From: Candidatus Minusculum obligatum
GTDB taxonomy: Bacteria > Patescibacteriota > Minisyncoccia > Phycocordibacterales > Phycocordibacteraceae
Assembly (NCBI GenBank): GCA_002331145.1
Contig: DCYT01000002.1
Span: forward strand, 23,337 to 87,336
Reading direction: 5' to 3'
Length of the DNA: 64,000 nucleotides
How positions within the stretch are numbered: position 1 is the first letter of the stretch; every line of letters begins with the position of its first letter. Below, piece by piece: positions 5,247-49,963 of this stretch. The position numbers and the translations under genes are program-made. Below the pieces are notes generated by a model that saw nothing but the letters and a program-made list of their open reading frames with translations, had not been told where the DNA came from and searched no databases.

Positions 5247-6230
5247 ATGGTTATTCGAATCATCATTCTGGCTGCGTCGCTCATCTTCGGATCGGCGGCT
5301 CACGCTCAGACACCATGGACAAATTGGGGCTCAGCTCCATATGCGTCCAGTCAGGAAGAAGCTTTCGAGCTCCTGCCTGAAGCGCTTGTTGCGCTTGGGG
5401 TTCCGCAGGAACTTCACAGCGAATTCATTGATATGGTTTCCGAGAATCCGGATGGGGAAGAAATCTTCCTTGATCCGAATGATCGGCTCATCGCGATGAT
5501 GAGTGGGGGTGCAAACCCTCATGCCATGCATGACGTGCCTGTTGCAGCCATTCCGGTCAATGAGACTGGTACGGTTGTGCAGGCAGCGCGTGCGCGCAAA
5601 TGGGAGATTGAGTATGAAGGCGTCACGTACGTCCTCATCCTCCCGGAAATCTGTTTCAACTGGTCGTACAATACCTTCGAGGTTGAAGTACGAGAAGTTG
5701 AGGTGCCACCTCCTCCCGAGGAATGTGCCATTATCGTATTTCCGGCTCAAGAAGGCTGGGTTGTTCGAAACTTCTTCCTTGCGGAAGAGAGTCGACTGCC
5801 TGCTAGCAATTGCTGGGCACTGCTTGATGGCGTTGATCATGAAGATGGTGCACGTATAAGCTCCTTGCCTGGTCGTTGTGATAACTGCGATCTTGAGCCC
5901 TACTTGCGTTGGGCACGTCGTGAGCACGGTCTTCGTGGAAGTCCTGTGAACAGCGCTAAGTATGGCGCCGAACGTGGCAATGTGCATGCGGTAATCATTC
6001 CGATCTCGCAGATTGAAAACTACAATACGATCTGCGTGGGTCCAGATGAACAGCGCCAGCGCTATTCGCCGGTGACAGTCGAACCCAGTGATTGGGATTC
6101 GGCTCTCCGGGAAAACCCGTTCGCGATTGATTTGCCTCAAGGGCAAACAATTCTGATTACCCATCAAGTGAACATCGAGGGGCGGCACTTTGAGTCGCTT
6201 CCGCGACGTCGCACCTGGCTGTGGTGGTAG
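5247..6230 (+). CDS. Secreted hypothetical protein encoded in a GC-rich island of foreign composition (likely horizontally acquired).
   Basis: Sec-type signal peptide MVIRIIILAASLIFGSAAHA|QT. Codon usage is GC3-rich (ctg, gcg, ccg, cgt, ggc), unlike the aga/gga/ctt-rich flanking genes. SD-like gagga sits 9 nt upstream. No recognisable domain. The antisense ORF 5331..6188 is judged spurious. Confidence 0.55.
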   Translation: MVIRIIILAASLIFGSAAHAQTPWTNWGSAPYASSQEEAFELLPEALVALGVPQELHSEFIDMVSENPDGEEIFLDPNDRLIAMMSGGANPHAMHDVPVAAIPVNETGTVVQAARARKWEIEYEGVTYVLILPEICFNWSYNTFEVEVREVEVPPPPEECAIIVFPAQEGWVVRNFFLAEESRLPASNCWALLDGVDHEDGARISSLPGRCDNCDLEPYLRWARREHGLRGSPVNSAKYGAERGNVHAVIIPISQIENYNTICVGPDEQRQRYSPVTVEPSDWDSALRENPFAIDLPQGQTILITHQVNIEGRHFESLPRRRTWLWW

Positions 6231-9143: not shown

Positions 9144-9170
9144 TACTCGATCATTTTTTACCGATGTATA

Positions 9171-9199
9171 AAAACAGCACTCGTATGAGTGCTGTTTTT
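9171..9199. terminator. Bidirectional intrinsic terminator downstream of the surface-protein gene
   Basis: aaaacagcactc-gtat-gagtgctgtttt: a perfect 12-bp stem flanked by A- and T-runs. Confidence 0.6.
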
Positions 9200-9201
9200 A
9201 T

Positions 9202-9237
9202 AACTACGTAGTTAATTACGTAATTAACTACGTAGTT
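9202..9237. repeat. Perfect 36-bp palindrome aactacgtagttaattacgtaattaactacgtagtt, with three TACGTA cores, overlapping the thrS stop codon.
   Basis: The sequence equals its own reverse complement, verified base by base. It sits exactly at a convergent gene junction. A sibling perfect palindrome at 39066-39101 shares the core ttaactacgtagttaa. Confidence 0.75.
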
Positions 9238-33306: not shown

Positions 33307-34583
33307 TGGCTACAAAGAAAACAACAAAAAAAGTAGTAAAAAAAAGCGTTACCAAAACGCCTAAAGCGGCAGCTGCACGTAAGTCAGCACCAAAAAAACC
33401 GGCAGCAACTAAAAAGACTGCGGTAAAGAAAACAACAACAAAGAAGGTAGTAAAGAAAGCAGCACCTAAGAAAGCTCCTGCTAAAAAACCAGCAGCTCCA
33501 AGAGGAAAAGCTGCAAAGATGCTCAAGCAGGCAGAGATGCTTGTAGACAAGGGGCGAGCGCGAGGATACGTAACATATAGCGAAATTCTTCGTGAGTTCC
33601 CAGAGATTGAGAAAGACATTGTCTTTCTTGAGGAACTGTATGAGCGATTTAATACAGTTGGTGTTGATGTGCTTGAAGGTGGAGGAATGCTTGAAAATGA
33701 TGCTGATGAGTATCTTCAGAATCGAAATGTATACAGAAAGGGAGAGGGGGGAGGATATGACTCAATTCAGATTTACCTTCGGGAAATCGGACAGTATCCA
33801 CTTCTAAATGCGGCGCAAGAGCGTGAACTTGCAAAGCGTATTGTAGAGGGCGATGAAGAAGCAAAGCATATTCTTGCACGAAGTAACCTACGTCTTGTAG
33901 TTTCTATTGCAAAGAAGTATGCAAACCGAAGTCCAGACCTTACACTTCTTGATCTTATTCAGGAAGGAAACATTGGACTATATAAGGCGGTAGAGAAGTT
34001 TGACTACACAAAGGGGTATAAGTTCTCAACATATGCTACTTGGTGGATTCGTCAGGCTATTACACGTGCGCTAGCCGATCAGTCACGAACCATTCGTATT
34101 CCGGTACACATGGTTGAGACAATTGCTAAGTACAAGCAGGTTTCTCGGCGTCTCTCACAGGCTCTTGGACGTGATCCTATGCCAGAGGAGATCTCAGTTG
34201 AGATGAATGTAGATGTAGAGAAGATTTATCAGATTGAGAAGATTAATCAAGACACTCTTTCACTTGAGAATCCTGTGGGGTCTGATGATGATGAGAAGTC
34301 TACACTCGGAGACTTTATCGCAGACGATAAACTTCCAACTCCAGATAAGGATACGTCAGAGCGAATCCTATCTGAGCAGCTTGAGGATATTCTCGATGAT
34401 CTTTCTGAGAAGGAGCGAAAGATTCTCGAGATGCGACACGGGCTAGCCGATGGTGTGTATCATACACTTGAGGAGGTAGGAAAAGAATTTGGTGTTACGC
34501 GAGAGCGTATTCGTCAGATTGAGGCCAAGGCACTTGAGAAGATTCGAAGTCATGAAAAATCTCGAAGACTAAAGAGTTATTAG
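33306..34583 (+). CDS. rpoD: RNA polymerase sigma-70 factor with a Lys/Ala/Pro-rich, histone-H1-like N-terminal extension
   Basis: Regions 1.2, 2, 3 and 4 present ([40 protein letters not shown]; [24 protein letters not shown]). The N-terminal ~75 aa are KKxxAxKK repeats. The start overlaps the dnaG stop (ATGA). Confidence 0.9.
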
Positions 34584-34600
34584 TCTCTGTAAAGAAGATA

Positions 34601-34630
34601 AGGAACAGCCACTTTTTAGTGGCTGTTCCT
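34601..34630 (+). terminator. Hairpin after rpoD, a likely terminator. A TATAAT box lies immediately downstream.
   Basis: aggaacagccact-tttt-agtggctgttcct: a perfect 13-bp stem. Confidence 0.45.
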
Positions 34631-34645: not shown

Positions 34646-37564
34646 ATGAATCTCTTTGAGGAGGCGTACAAAAGGCTTAATAAAGACCAGAAAAGGGCCG
34701 TGGATACGATTGAGGGGCCTGTAATGGTGATTGCAGGGCCTGGAACGGGAAAGACACAGATTCTTACCCTTCGTATTGCAAATATCCTCAAAAACACTGA
34801 TACACCTCCATCTGCTATTCTTGCTCTTACCTATACAGATGCGGGGGTAAATGCGATGCGAGAGCGCCTTGTGCAGTTTATTGGTACCGAAGCGTACCTT
34901 GTGCGTATCCATACATATCACTCATTTGCAGAGAGTTTAATAAAAGAATATGGAGAGCATCTAGAGCGTTTGCGAGATGGAATGCTTGCAGATGATGTGG
35001 ATCAAAGAGAAATACTTGAGAGGGCTTTTGATTCAGTCTCAGCACCACTTCTAACAAGTAGAGGAGATGCATACAGGGGAATAAAAGAAGTTGTAAGGTT
35101 TATCGATACTGCAAAGCGAGAGCTCTACACTCCAGAGAAACTTTTGAAGGAATATAAAGAAGATGAAGAGAGGATACGAAACCTGGAAGATTTTGAACAT
35201 GTAAAAGGTGCGCACAAAGGAAAGGTGAAGGCGGAATACTTAAAGGCACTCGCAAAGATTGAGAAAAATACTCAAGCTACAGAAATTTATAAAGCGTATG
35301 AAGATATTCTTCGAAGAGAAAATCGATATGATTATCAGGATCTTTTGCTTGAGTTAGTCGCAGCTCTAAAAGAGAATCAAGAATTTAAACAAATTCTTCA
35401 AGAGCAATTCTTATATTTCCTTGCAGATGAGCACCAGGATGCAAATGCAACACAGAATGAAATCTTGCTGGAGCTGGCAGACTTTCACGATTCACCAAAT
35501 GTATTTGTGGTGGGAGATGAGAAGCAGGCGATCTATAGATTTCAAGGAGCAGACCTTGATACCTTCCTAACACTCAAGGAGCGATATCAAAATGCAGAAG
35601 TTATTTTGCTTGAGACAAACTATCGATCAACCCAAGAGGTGCTTGATACAGCACATGAGCTTATATCAAAAGCTCCAATTCCAGATGAGAGTCTTCGAAA
35701 GGAACTTGGTGCACATCACGGAAGTGGAGCTAAGGTACGTGTGTGTAAAGCTCACGATGGTGAGGATGAGCTCTCACAAGTTGTTGGATATATAGAAAAG
35801 CTTCTAAAAGAAGGAGTAAGTGAGAAGGATGTTGCGGTACTTGTGCGAAACAATGCAGATGCATCTATTGTTGCTGGTGCATGTATGCGAGCAAAAATCC
35901 CTTTTACTATTATGGCGAAAGAGAATGTGCTAAAGAGTGCGTTTGCAAAACTCTACATTAATTTACTCCGTGCTATTTGGGATGGAGATACTATCGCACT
36001 AACTAAAGCACTCTTTCTCCCAGGGATTGTAAGCGATGGCACAGACAGGTTGAAACTCATCGAAGCTCTTAGGAAAACAAAGAAAAACCTTCTTAAAGAT
36101 ATAGATGAGAGCAAGTTCTCAGAAAAAGAAGAAATAAAGAAATTAAAAGAAGTGTTTGCTGAACTTCATGAAGAAGTGCACGCATTTCCTGCGGCCCGTG
36201 TAGTTCCGCATATTATTTCAAAACTAAACATTGTATCTGGAATAACGAAGAGACTTGATGCCCAAGAACTTTATGGAATTCTTCAGGCACTACTACACGA
36301 TGTAGAGAAATTTGCCGGCGCATATCCCGGATCTGACATAGGAGCATATCTTGAGAGGGTAGATTTAATTGAAAAGCATGAGCTTTCTGTTATCTCAACA
36401 AAGAAAGAGGTACGAGGTATTCAAATAATGACCGCGCATAGTTCAAAAGGTCTTGAGTTTCCATATGTAATTATTCCTTTTGCTACTGATAGAAGGTATG
36501 GAAAGAAGCGGGCGAATGAGCTATCAGTTCCAGGATCATTAATCCAAGAAGAGCACGATGAGCGAAGACTTTTGTATGTGGCACTTACCCGTGCAGAAAA
36601 AGAAGCGCTTATTACCTATGCTGCAAGGAATGCTTTGGGAAGAGAGGAAACTCCAACAAGGTTTATTCATGACATGGGTGAGCTGCTAGAGGATATGGAG
36701 AGTTTTGAAACAACACTGCCATTAGTTGCAGAGGAGGAGCGAACATCACTTATTGATACTTCATACATAAAAGACAGGCTTCTAGAATCTGGAATGTCAG
36801 CAACAGCATACGGAAACTACAAAGCATCTCCATGGAAGTATTTCTTTAGAAATCTTCTAAGGCTTCCAGAGGGGAAGACACTGCCACTTATTTATGGATC
36901 TGCAGTGCATGCTGCGCTGGAGGAAGCGGGAAATCAATCCCTTGCAAAGGGAGAGTTTGATATCAAAGAAGTAGAGAAGCTTTTTGAAGAGAAGATGCAG
37001 TCTTCTGATCTAACTGAAAAAGAAAGAAAAGAATATACGCCAATAGGAAAGAAAGTTCTGAAGGAATATTTAGAACAGACAACGCTTCCAAAAGAAGGGA
37101 AGACAGAGTTTTCAGTTTCAGCACCATTTGAGATTCCAGGAGTTGGGACGCTAACCATTCGAGGAAATCTCGATCGACTAGATATCGTTGATGGATCTTC
37201 TGTACGTGTAGTTGATTACAAGACAGGGAAGCCAAAGAGTGAGAATGAGATTAAAGGATTAACTGCAAATGGTGATCCTTCGTACTACGTGCAGCTTATG
37301 TTCTACGCATTGCTTCTAAAGCACGACCCATCACACTTATACAATATGAAAGAGGGGGTGCTTGAGTTTGTAGAGCCAAATGCAACAAGGAAGTATGTGT
37401 CTCGATCTTTTGTAATTGATGAGAAGGAGCTCTCAGAATTTGAGGAGGTCTTTAAGAAAGACCTTGCTGATATAGCAAGCGGCGCATTTTTGAATGCGCC
37501 GCTTAGCGATGACTACAAAGAGTTAGTCGAAATGATTAGCTTGAAGAAAGAATCTGGTCAATAA
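34646..37564 (+). CDS. UvrD/PcrA-type superfamily 1 helicase with a C-terminal PD-(D/E)xK (RecB/AddA-like) nuclease domain
   Basis: Walker A AGPGTGKTQ, DExQD-like FLADEHQDANATQ, helicase motifs through IMTAHSSKGLEFPYVIIP...VALTRAEK. C-terminal nuclease motifs GNLDRLDIVDGSSVRVVDYKTG...YYVQLMFY. 972 aa. Confidence 0.85.
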   Translation: MNLFEEAYKRLNKDQKRAVDTIEGPVMVIAGPGTGKTQILTLRIANILKNTDTPPSAILALTYTDAGVNAMRERLVQFIGTEAYLVRIHTYHSFAESLIKEYGEHLERLRDGMLADDVDQREILERAFDSVSAPLLTSRGDAYRGIKEVVRFIDTAKRELYTPEKLLKEYKEDEERIRNLEDFEHVKGAHKGKVKAEYLKALAKIEKNTQATEIYKAYEDILRRENRYDYQDLLLELVAALKENQEFKQILQEQFLYFLADEHQDANATQNEILLELADFHDSPNVFVVGDEKQAIYRFQGADLDTFLTLKERYQNAEVILLETNYRSTQEVLDTAHELISKAPIPDESLRKELGAHHGSGAKVRVCKAHDGEDELSQVVGYIEKLLKEGVSEKDVAVLVRNNADASIVAGACMRAKIPFTIMAKENVLKSAFAKLYINLLRAIWDGDTIALTKALFLPGIVSDGTDRLKLIEALRKTKKNLLKDIDESKFSEKEEIKKLKEVFAELHEEVHAFPAARVVPHIISKLNIVSGITKRLDAQELYGILQALLHDVEKFAGAYPGSDIGAYLERVDLIEKHELSVISTKKEVRGIQIMTAHSSKGLEFPYVIIPFATDRRYGKKRANELSVPGSLIQEEHDERRLLYVALTRAEKEALITYAARNALGREETPTRFIHDMGELLEDMESFETTLPLVAEEERTSLIDTSYIKDRLLESGMSATAYGNYKASPWKYFFRNLLRLPEGKTLPLIYGSAVHAALEEAGNQSLAKGEFDIKEVEKLFEEKMQSSDLTEKERKEYTPIGKKVLKEYLEQTTLPKEGKTEFSVSAPFEIPGVGTLTIRGNLDRLDIVDGSSVRVVDYKTGKPKSENEIKGLTANGDPSYYVQLMFYALLLKHDPSHLYNMKEGVLEFVEPNATRKYVSRSFVIDEKELSEFEEVFKKDLADIASGAFLNAPLSDDYKELVEMISLKKESGQ

Positions 37565-38225
37565 CTCCTTTCATTTGCTCATACGGTAGAGCGCTTGAGA
37601 AGCTAACTGGTTCCTCTCCTTCCATAATAACGATGTTAAATGGAGTTCCTGTTCCTCCAGCCTCAACTGCTGTGTTGAATGAGTTCTGTACTTTCTCTGT
37701 GTACTTTCCGCTTGCAACACATGCATCGAGTGCTTCTTTTGATACACCAACCTGTTCTGCGTACTCTCCGTACTTACTTGGATCGGTTTGTTGATTTCCT
37801 GGTGCGTTCTCAAATAGAACATCAAGGAAGCTCCAGAATGAATCATTTCCTCCAAGTTCCGCTACACACTCAGCAGCTTCTGCATGCTTTGCTGCATTTG
37901 GGTGAATAGATGATAGAGGGAAGTGTCGGTATACCCATGCCACGTCTCCTGATGGACCATACTCATCAATGATTTGCTTCATTGTCTCATGGAAGTTCTT
38001 ACAGAACGGACAATCAATATCTGAGTACTCAATAATAGTAATTTTCGCATTAGGACTTCCTAGGATGTGATCATCCTCTGTAATTGGAAGTACAACACTC
38101 ACATCAGCTTCCTGCTGATTATTTGGGTTTTGTGGAGCCTGTTCATTAAAGAATACTGCTCCTGCAATCAGCAGTCCTGCCACTACTATCGCTCCTGGAA
38201 TCGCAAATTTAGCCATATATTTCAA
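37536..38225 (-). CDS. DsbA-like thiol:disulfide oxidoreductase, membrane-anchored (paralog 1)
   Basis: N-terminal TM helix. CPFC active site in IIEYSDIDCPFCKNFHETM, and a VAWVYRHFPL motif shared with the other two paralogs. Overlaps the helicase 3' end by 29 nt (convergent). Confidence 0.85.
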   Translation of the reverse strand: MKYMAKFAIPGAIVVAGLLIAGAVFFNEQAPQNPNNQQEADVSVVLPITEDDHILGSPNAKITIIEYSDIDCPFCKNFHETMKQIIDEYGPSGDVAWVYRHFPLSSIHPNAAKHAEAAECVAELGGNDSFWSFLDVLFENAPGNQQTDPSKYGEYAEQVGVSKEALDACVASGKYTEKVQNSFNTAVEAGGTGTPFNIVIMEGEEPVSFSSALPYEQMKGVIDQILSSS

Positions 38226-38242: not shown

Positions 38243-39067
38243 ATGGGCCAGTATACCATGGAAGTTTTTACAGCCATCATCCTTGGTCTTATCCAAGGAA
38301 TCACAGAATTTCTCCCAATTTCGTCAACCGGACACCTTGTTTTGGTGCAAGAATTCTTAGGAGTATCTGATATTTACGGGCTTTCTTTTGATGCAATCTT
38401 ACACCTTGCTACTGCCTTGGCTGTTGGAATCTACTTTTTTAAAGATTTTCTAAAGATTGCCTATGCATTTCTTTATAGAATTACAGGTCGTCCAGTTGTA
38501 AAAGAGGATGAGACAATGCTCTTGCTTCTCATTATCGGAACTATTCCAGCTGCAGCATTGGGATTTTATTTAGAAGATTACATGGATACCATCTTCCGGA
38601 ATCCTGTTTTGGTTGCCTGGACACTTATCTTGGGAGCCCTTATCTTCCTTTTGGCTGAGTGGGTGGGGAAGCGATATCAGGAGCAAGAAGAAGTTCCTAC
38701 AAAAATGAAAGCACTTTGGATTGGATTCTTCCAAGCGCTCGCCCTTATTCCAGGAATGAGTCGCTCTGGTATGACAATCTCAGGAGGATTGATGCTTGGT
38801 CTTACAAGAGAGGCTGCAGCACGCTTTGGATTTATGTTGGCTTTTCCAATTATCCTTGGATCTGGAGGAAAGAAGTTTCTCGATCTTCTAAATGCTGGAA
38901 CTTTTGATGCAAATATTGCTCCAATATTCTGGGGAGCAGTTGCAGCGTTTGTAAGTGGGCTTTTGGTTATTCATTACCTTCTAAAATTCCTGCGAAATCA
39001 TTCGCTTACTGTATTTGCGGTGTATAGAATACTATTGGCAATAGTTGTGCTTGTTTGGTTTGTCTAA
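38243..39067 (+). CDS. uppP: Undecaprenyl-diphosphate phosphatase
   Basis: ITEFLPISSTGHLVL and PGMSRSGMTISGGLMLGL signatures. 8 TM helices. Confidence 0.9.
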   Translation: MGQYTMEVFTAIILGLIQGITEFLPISSTGHLVLVQEFLGVSDIYGLSFDAILHLATALAVGIYFFKDFLKIAYAFLYRITGRPVVKEDETMLLLLIIGTIPAAALGFYLEDYMDTIFRNPVLVAWTLILGALIFLLAEWVGKRYQEQEEVPTKMKALWIGFFQALALIPGMSRSGMTISGGLMLGLTREAAARFGFMLAFPIILGSGGKKFLDLLNAGTFDANIAPIFWGAVAAFVSGLLVIHYLLKFLRNHSLTVFAVYRILLAIVVLVWFV

Positions 39068-39101
39068 CTACTGAGTTAACTACGTAGTTAACTCAGTAGT
39101 T
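39066..39101. repeat. Perfect 36-bp palindrome aactactgagttaactacgtagttaactcagtagtt, filling the gap between convergent uppP and the exonuclease gene
   Basis: Equals its own reverse complement. Overlaps the uppP stop (39065-39067) and ends 1 nt before the exonuclease stop. Shares the ttaactacgtagttaa core with the palindrome at 9202-9237. Confidence 0.75.
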
Positions 39102-39102
39102 G

Positions 39103-39678
39103 CTAAAGACCTAAAGTTTGCGTCACAGCCCCTCCATCTGATTTATCCCACTCTGAAGTATCGATTTTAATATCTCGAATCTCATTAAGGTCTTTCCACT
39201 TAATGATTCCGTTTTCTTTTGCATATTCAAAAATATCTTTTGTTACTTTCACGTCCTGAAGACAATACTCACGCACTTTGTCTACGAGTCCTTGCTGCCA
39301 CCATTCAATAGCCTTAAGTCCATCAGCACTTTTTCCTTCTCCAAGTGTTGCTTCAGCTAAGTTATTTAGACGAATACGTCGCCCAAGGGATTTATGTACA
39401 TCCTTTAGAAGATCAATGCTTTTAATATTTGTTAAATCACCAGGATAGTATTTGTTGAGGAGGGGAATATCGAACGTATCTGAGTTAAATCCAATAAGAG
39501 CATCAGTTGATTCAACTAGTGGCCAGAAGTTTATAAGCTCTTCTGCTGTGTAGCTTGTGTACTCGTCTGTTTTGCTGTTGTAGGCACCCAAAATGGCGAT
39601 ATCCAGTGTTGTTACCGTCTTCTCATTAATATACGGAAGAGTATCCGTTGTTTCGATATCGAATACTATGTAGTTCAT
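39103..39678 (-). CDS. DEDD-family 3'-5' exonuclease (DnaQ-like fold)
   Basis: Exo I IVFDIETTD, Exo II GFNSDTFDIPLL, Exo III YCLQDVKVT (DEDDy type). 191 aa. Confidence 0.7.
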   Translation of the reverse strand: MNYIVFDIETTDTLPYINEKTVTTLDIAILGAYNSKTDEYTSYTAEELINFWPLVESTDALIGFNSDTFDIPLLNKYYPGDLTNIKSIDLLKDVHKSLGRRIRLNNLAEATLGEGKSADGLKAIEWWQQGLVDKVREYCLQDVKVTKDIFEYAKENGIIKWKDLNEIRDIKIDTSEWDKSDGGAVTQTLGL

Positions 39679-44046: not shown

Positions 44047-44078
44047 AAAAACAGTGGACAATATTGTCCACTGTTTTT
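44047..44078. terminator. Perfect 32-bp palindromic terminator (aaaaacagtggacaat|attgtccactgttttt)
   Basis: 16-bp arms with A5/T5 flanks built in. Follows the DUF1360 stop. Confidence 0.7.
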
Positions 44079-49903: not shown

Positions 49904-49963
49904 TTCTACGTATACTGAGTGTAGCAATAAAGTGTAGGTATTTCTGTAAATTACGTAGTTTTT
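49904..49963. repeat. Degenerate copy of the TACGTA palindrome family, in a divergent intergenic region
   Basis: ttctacgtatactgagtg ... aattacgtagttttt resembles aactactgagtt / aactacgtagtt from the two perfect palindromes. Confidence 0.35.

Follow-up and report, generated by a model that had tools for sequence, protein, structure and literature searches.

The palindrome P2 is located at a convergent gene junction within the 64,000-nucleotide stretch of Candidatus Minusculum obligatum DNA that was analysed here (the window). It lies between uppP, encoding an undecaprenyl-diphosphatase, and the gene for an RNase H-like exonuclease, with which the hisS operon ends. As proposed in the initial annotation, window positions 39066–39101 form a perfect 36-bp palindrome, AACTACTGAGTTAACTACGTAGTTAACTCAGTAGTT, which is identical to its own reverse complement. 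A sibling palindrome, P1, overlaps the end of thrS, and both P1 and P2 are built from three 12-bp units that resemble AACTACGTAGTT. The features of the two loci are as follows:

9167–9202, no strand: bidirectional canonical intrinsic terminator (A-tract, G+C-rich stem, T-tract) that abuts P1
9202–9237, no strand: P1, perfect 36-bp palindrome AACTACGTAGTTAATTACGTAATTAACTACGTAGTT, with units AACTACGTAGTT / AATTACGTAATT / AACTACGTAGTT; the thrS stop codon TAG (9228–9230) lies inside it
38243–39067, plus strand: uppP/bacA (undecaprenyl-diphosphatase), stop codon TAA at 39065–39067; PF02673 on the orthologue
39065–39102, plus strand: 38-nt unit consisting of T, P2 and G, the flanking bases being common to all P2 copies
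39066–39101, no strand: P2, with units AACTACTGAGTT / AACTACGTAGTT / AACTCAGTAGTT
39103–39678, minus strand: RNase H-like/DEDD-type exonuclease, stop codon at 39103–39105; PF13482

P2 starts at the second base of the uppP stop codon, such that the last two bases of the TAA are also the first two bases of the palindrome, and it ends at 39101, 1 nt short of the exonuclease stop codon. Since the uppP stop ends at 39067 and the exonuclease stop begins at 39103, the intergenic region 39068–39102 is occupied by P2, with base 39102 as the sole spare base. Thus, the boundaries initially assigned to P2, as well as its description as the entire intergenic region, are correct. A terminator scan of 39000–39200 gave no site, in agreement with the earlier observation that the junction has no separate A/T-flanked terminator, and the hairpin that had been placed for contrast at 9171–9199 corresponds to the inverted repeat at 9167–9202. 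P2 itself presents stop codons in all three frames of both strands.

P2 is real rather than a product of misassembly. When the window was shuffled 50 times by mononucleotides, the longest perfect palindrome measured 14–20 bp, compared with the 36 bp observed, and P2 is present with one mismatch in ~95%-identical relatives (four other assemblies). A chimeric or hairpin join could be suspected from the frequency with which short-read contigs end inside the palindrome (L007, L008 and L132); however, an independent JGI contig (L006) runs through P2, and the palindrome is found with unique flanks in NCBI, ENA, Tara and Logan assemblies of relatives, so that we consider the chance of such an artefact to be vanishingly small. 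More generally, short-read contigs and scaffolds, from Logan and other sources, stop or carry N gaps at these palindromes (the ends of L007, L008 and L132; L067 from position 624 onward), and the palindromes fragment short-read assemblies of the lineage.

The six positional differences between P1 and P2 fall into three symmetric pairs, and therefore both remain perfect palindromes. Matches to the 12-mer AACTACGTAGTT with up to two mismatches number 9 in the window, compared with 1.6 expected by chance; a lone AATTACGTAGTT at 49949 was discarded, as no palindrome surrounds it. When one genome per species was scanned for a pattern with only 18 bases fixed (AACTAC-N9-TACGTA-N9-GTAGTT), 98 stretches matched. 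The MAG 'Patescibacteria group bacterium UBA3533', which is ~94–96% identical to the window, contains six copies on six contigs, namely exact P1 four times, exact P2 once and P2 with one mismatch once. The exact P2 of UBA3533 is found at an unrelated locus, FKBP/tgt (L095 6687–6731 matches window 39059–39103), and its 35/36 copy resides in the gap between the genes designated CDPS and EEP (L001/L013). A metagenome scan identified Ga0316204_10000037 (L122), a 554,967-bp contig of a relative 78.9% identical to the window, where six P1-type copies (exact P1 or one mismatch) are dispersed at ~36, 150, 191, 333, 356 and 546 kb without clustering. Related 36-mers are present in other Patescibacteria MAGs (Spechtbacterales, Lloydbacteria and JAHIYV01) and in metagenome contigs of 56% G+C. 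By pattern searches, in which degenerate copies may be missed, there are two copies in the 64-kb window, six in the UBA3533 MAG and six on the 555-kb contig. The palindromes form a family with ~6–8 copies per genome of ~0.55–0.6 Mb in this marine Patescibacteria lineage.

The eight distinct loci of the family comprise four convergent, four co-directional and no divergent gene pairs, and all copies touch the 3' end of a gene, often donating its stop codon, with overlaps of 2–14 nt. The palindrome contains or overlaps the stop codons of thrS, rnhA, an ogt-like gene, uppP, EEP and a kinase-like gene. The thrS, rnhA and kinase-like genes end in ...TT*, which is read from the palindrome's ACT ACG TAG, whereas the ogt-like gene ends in ...ELRS*, 14 nt inside the palindrome, and the overlap is 2 nt for uppP and the EEP phosphatase. 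At the co-directional rnhA/comEC locus, the comEC ATG follows 0 or 1 nt after the palindrome in both lineages, which leaves no space for a new promoter, and therefore transcription must cross the palindrome. At no fewer than four loci, among them that of P1 (9167–9202), the palindrome comes immediately after the T-tract of a canonical terminator. The sequences of these adjacent terminators differ among the loci, which rules out a composite 'terminator plus palindrome' repeat. Within the window, five convergent junctions carry canonical A/T-flanked G+C-rich hairpins, and only the uppP/exonuclease junction has P2 alone. A further convergent pair, encoding a UvrD-like helicase (34646–37564, plus strand) and a DsbA/thioredoxin-like protein (37536–38225, minus strand), overlaps by 29 nt (37536–37564) and has no terminator.

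Other hairpins and genes of the window were also noted. A 32-bp perfect palindrome at 44047–44078, AAAAACAGTGGACAATATTGTCCACTGTTTTT, resembles a canonical bidirectional terminator, and relatives of the UBA3533 type have an additional GcrA-like gene (PF07750) at this position. The short gap at 34583–34624 holds a hairpin (34601–34630) where relatives carry a gene for a 128-aa Pro_CA_2 (carbonic anhydrase-like) protein, which makes it another strain-specific gene indel at a hairpin. The 953-aa ORF upstream of P1 (6282–9143) has no Pfam match.

Five loci of the family are orthologous between the window/UBA3533 lineage and Ga0316204_10000037, with the following identities of the palindrome:

Locus A, thrS end: 35/36
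Locus C, FKBP/tgt: 29/36
Locus E, ogt-like end: 36/36
Locus F, rnhA/comEC: 36/36
Locus G: 36/36

Summed over loci A, E, F and G, the palindrome is identical at 143 of 144 positions, whereas the 300-nt flanks of the orthologous loci, which are mostly coding, are 33–87% identical (typically 70–80%); the palindrome is better conserved than the adjacent essential genes. Locus C represents a subtype switch, with P2 in one lineage and a P1-type palindrome in the other, and six of its seven differences are the three symmetric pairs that distinguish P1 from P2. A comparison of 11 distinct variants showed complementarity in 94.9% of pair cells and two-sided changes in 8 of the 16 stem pairs, a level of covariation that was reached in none of 500 shuffles. 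The identity at orthologous loci, together with the covariation, indicates that sequence and arm complementarity are both maintained. We note that the symmetric changes could also stem from arm-to-arm, hairpin-templated correction or mutation without selection.

The uppP/exonuclease junction itself is arranged differently among relatives (gene order from the exonuclease, exo, to uppP; arrows give the direction of transcription):

Window: exo -> P2 <- uppP
UBA3533 and Tara relatives: exo -> CDPS -> P2 (35/36) <- EEP <- uppP, with the palindrome flush with the genes ('TAA C [P2] A')
L136: exo -> 22-nt gap TACAACTACGTGGCCGTACTTA, a degenerate mini-version <- EEP <- uppP
L133 (UBA2103): exo -> canonical bidirectional terminator <- unknown gene <- uppP
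L134/L135 (NVRX02, labelled Wolfebacteria), 5573–5576: the exonuclease and uppP stop codons overlap (CTTTAAAC), with zero intergenic DNA

These differences indicate that P2 is lineage-specific at this position and that the junction is a hot spot of gene content; the palindromes mark junctions where strains differ in the genes they carry. In the 95%-identical relatives (L001 10573–12041, UBA3533, DFOU01000005.1), the palindrome is flanked by genes for a cyclodipeptide synthase (PF16715) and an Exo_endo_phos protein, both of which are missing from the window. A cyclodipeptide synthase is unusual for a Patescibacteria genome.

Folding energies calculated for the RNA in both orientations, a check suggested in the initial annotation, show that P2 folds strongly, with -21.2 kcal/mol for the element alone and z-scores of about -5.4 to -6.9 overall. 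The 36-mer RNA adopts a 16-bp stem closed by an ACGU loop, for which the values are -21.2 kcal/mol (z -6.9) for P2 and -18.2 kcal/mol (z -5.0) for P1. When the flanks are included, P2 reaches -28.2 kcal/mol (plus strand) and -24.8 kcal/mol (minus strand); through the T and G that border P2, the plus-strand RNA alone gains a U-G closing pair. The corresponding DNA hairpins have energies of -14.4 kcal/mol (P2) and -13.7 kcal/mol (P1).

It had been suggested that P2 terminates both transcripts, and one part of this proposal stands. The hairpin is strong in either orientation, and P2 occupies the site where L133 has a canonical bidirectional terminator at the exact junction, which identifies the uppP/exonuclease junction as a terminator position. 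Furthermore, terminators are present at five other convergent junctions of the window but not at this one. Like bidirectional intrinsic (Rho-independent) terminators, the palindromes place a symmetric hairpin in a convergent gap. However, P2 lacks the signature of an intrinsic terminator, since only 5 of the 16 stem pairs are G-C and neither strand provides a U-tract, the stem being followed by GCUAAAGACC on the plus and by AGACAAACCA on the minus strand. In contrast to intrinsic terminators, the palindrome has an A+T-rich stem without an A- or T-tract, reuses one sequence at many loci, often adjoins a true terminator and is found once inside an apparent operon, where the copy precedes the comEC ATG by 0–1 nt. 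The co-occurrence with canonical terminators extends to four loci or more, the L134/L135 junction does without any terminator, and near-perfect identity among copies, across genomes that are ~79% identical, is not required of a terminator hairpin. We therefore regard it as highly doubtful that P2 is the sole bidirectional transcription terminator of uppP and the exonuclease operon.

With respect to its origin, P2 would have reached the uppP/exonuclease junction by copying from another locus. The P2 variants at uppP/exonuclease and FKBP/tgt share CT...GC flanks, and three identical double changes are unlikely to have arisen twice, which argues that P2 was copied between loci. A TTAG direct repeat flanks a 35-nt insert in the window, and removal of the insert yields GGTCTTTAGACAAACC, which is collinear with the overlapping stop codons of L134. 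An insertion that duplicated the shared stop codons is compatible with this TTAG arrangement, and a route through deletion of EEP is equally possible. A consistent target-site duplication was not found at the other palindrome loci, TTAG being confined to uppP/exonuclease.

These observations raise the possibility that the palindrome is a selfish or neutral miniature mobile element without host function, moved by a Y1/HUH (RAYT-type) or other transposase. Consistent with mobility, identical copies are found at unrelated loci (exact P2 at two), the uppP/exonuclease palindrome is present, absent or degenerate among relatives, removal of the TTAG-flanked insert restores the L134-like stop codons, GTAG/CTAC motifs are present as in repetitive extragenic palindromes (REPs), and genes of the RAYT family lie 166 nt from one copy (L125) and 9 nt from a Bacteroidales array (L048). 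The RAYT of L125 (UOXV01000030.1, 7090–7790) comprises 166 aa with a PF01797 match (E = 2e-7) and HUH and YIxxNPV motifs, but it is bracketed by its own, unrelated ~65-bp G+C-rich inverted repeats, which contain small hairpins, rather than by the P-type copy 166 nt away. A 74% homologue of this RAYT (L137) has no P copy nearby and carries different but analogous inverted repeats. Similarly, a RAYT-like ORF ends 9 nt before an array of CTACGTAG boxes on the Bacteroidales contig L048, yet no array lies near its homologues (77%, 58% and 57% identity). When the window and all family loci were searched with an HMM derived from 120 RAYTs, no RAYT was detected. Thus, for the window, the family loci and the homologues compared, REP-style mobilisation by a RAYT is not supported. 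Moreover, the other loci have no consistent target duplication, and the five loci that are orthologous at ~79% genome identity keep an essentially unchanged sequence, which indicates purifying selection at fixed sites. A mobile element devoid of host function is accordingly a rather improbable explanation.

Several further identities were considered and rejected. The palindrome differs in sequence from the 16-bp TGTTNCACGTGAAACA-like parS/ParB site, and its copies are spread over 36–546 kb of the 555-kb contig, whereas parS sites are clustered near the origin. TIGR arrays (TIGR-Tas) consist of 5–15 units with alternating 8–12 nt edge and loop repeats, 9-nt variable spacers and box C/D, adjoining a Nop-domain gene, whereas the palindrome is a single 36-nt unit without variable spacers or UG...CCA motifs; the 36-nt length common to both is coincidental. 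A MITE is not indicated, because the whole element is palindrome with no internal segment and the TTAG duplication is limited to one locus. Comparison with Rfam gave no match at gathering thresholds, the weak ones being generic miRNA-hairpin models, and a phage or plasmid origin was dismissed as there was no match in viral contigs, phage records or plasmid records.

Another reading places recognition at the level of DNA, where a dimeric or multimeric protein with sequence specificity would bind three TACGTA-centred boxes spaced 12 bp apart, or an extruded cruciform. Such a protein might, for example, serve in the nucleoid or at domain boundaries, act as a transcription roadblock or take part in recombination. 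The exact conservation of sequence, exceeding that of the neighbouring coding DNA, would be consistent with such a protein, as would the 12-bp period of the cores and the handful of dispersed sites per genome, which is typical of architectural sites. Most matches of the one-genome-per-species scan come from a few Bacteroidales/Rikenellaceae MAGs, in which many extragenic arrays contain 3–5 CTACGTAG boxes with an exact 12-bp period and variable 4-nt linkers (among L009–L106, for example, L035 1991–2050, L017 1633–1692 and L048 7383–7418), one MAG having at least ~20 loci. These arrays maintain the 8-bp CTACGTAG boxes rather than the complementarity of the arms, which points to recognition of the box: the boxes are conserved in 76–77 of 83 arrays, only 6 of the 83 are perfect palindromes, and the complementarity of the linkers (0.705) is that of shuffles (0.688). 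The arrays are located in 31 unidirectional, 14 convergent, 8 divergent and 1 intragenic positions; the 14 convergent and 31 unidirectional cases, set beside 8 divergent ones, argue against a promoter or operator role. No description of CTACGTAG arrays was found in the searchable literature.

The arrays resemble the palindrome family in their 12-bp period, core box, 3–5 units and extragenic location, but differ by many copies per genome, non-complementary linkers and a median distance of ~85–140 nt from ORF ends, in contrast to the stop-flush palindromes. Because the arrays share the code without a long hairpin, a protein that reads boxes in DNA stays a live rival. The MetJ metboxes AGACGTCT provide a precedent for tandem operator arrays of short palindromic boxes, with an 8-bp period and located at promoters. 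Short ACGT-centred palindromic boxes repeated in phase are common to metboxes and the palindrome, whereas the palindrome has a period of 12 bp rather than 8 bp, is found at gene ends instead of promoters and, in P2, has lost the symmetry of the outer boxes while retaining long-range complementarity. Indeed, the outer boxes of P2 are no longer palindromic (CTACTGAG / CTCAGTAG), and the complementarity of the whole element is kept despite this loss, which favours pairing. Furthermore, no candidate protein was found, an architectural site needs no strict location at gene ends, and the copies are unclustered, unlike parS. Overall, we judge recognition at the DNA level to be unlikely, although less so than either mobility or termination.

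In light of these data, P2 is a copy of a low-copy, dispersed and strongly conserved family, and we favour, with about even confidence, a REP-like element that probably acts as a 3'-end or intercistronic RNA hairpin, rather than as a classical hairpin-plus-U-tract terminator. The palindrome is always located at the 3' end of a gene and is therefore transcribed. Transcription from either strand would produce the same hairpin of 16–17 bp with an ACGU loop. This hairpin may keep 3' exonucleases off the upstream message and limit read-through as well as convergent antisense transcription. Where a gene follows, ribosomes halting in the 5' arm could open the hairpin and thereby couple translation of the next gene. 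A role as an RNA hairpin alone leaves the sequence identity of the copies unexplained; a putative sequence-specific factor that recognises the hairpin would account for it. The L134/L135 relatives, which tolerate the junction without any hairpin, count against our preferred interpretation.

Comparison with REPs reveals both shared and distinct features. REPs are dispersed palindromic repeats of 20–40 bp (PMC3733652; Nunvar et al. 2010, PMC2817692), as are the members of the palindrome family, and both are situated between convergent or co-directional ORFs within a few nucleotides of 3' ends, supply TAG stop codons, are divided into subfamilies by complementary stem changes and are presumed to be transcribed as RNA hairpins. 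In particular, GTAG REPs often donate a TAG stop codon, and their subfamilies are distinguished by complementary changes in the stem (Di Nocera et al. 2013, PMC3733652); convergent ones lie <20 bp from both ORF ends and unidirectional ones hug the upstream ORF (PMC3733652). P2 has the size and stem-loop form of a 20–40 bp palindromic unit, and the extragenic placement at ORF 3' ends with a TAG stop is seen at the eight loci. By contrast, the stem of the palindrome is perfect, symmetric, 16–18 bp long and A+T-rich, whereas REP stems are G+C-rich and 6–13 bp. In REPs, one end of the stem-loop bears GTAG (or CGTC) as an unpaired tag (PMC3733652), whereas GTAG occurs 2–3 times in the palindrome, internally and paired with CTAC, and the flanking bases are T and G. 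The palindromes further differ by their Patescibacteria host and by extreme conservation at orthologous loci. The copy number of ~6–8 per genome, far below the tens to hundreds of typical REPs, the pairing of GTAG within the stem and the absence of a cognate RAYT from the window and family loci count against the REP-like interpretation. With neither the unpaired end tag nor the high copy number, the palindrome is REP-like but is not a member of the REPs.

A bolder variant of our interpretation, which we advance as a speculation with little probability behind it, is that the palindromes are cis sites of an undescribed system, in which a dedicated factor recognises phased TACGTA/CTACGTAG boxes by their sequence as well as by their hairpin or cruciform and thereby marks or insulates gene ends in ultra-small Patescibacteria, the Bacteroidales CTACGTAG arrays being a related, high-copy version of the same code.

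Patescibacteria genomes are extremely compact with little non-coding DNA, and the window is ~90% coding. A 36-bp non-coding element that outconserves the neighbouring essential genes, stays palindromic and is reused at ~6–8 gene ends is thus very likely to be functional, as judged from these sequence comparisons. Literature searches by motif strings returned primers only, and no description of a perfect, A+T-rich, low-copy and RAYT-less REP-like form was found in the searchable literature. The family extends REP-like elements to the Patescibacteria and to a form that is perfect, A+T-rich and low-copy, with no RAYT found, and the palindrome provides a defined and testable cis element for how Patescibacteria end, stabilise or couple transcripts, or organise their DNA.
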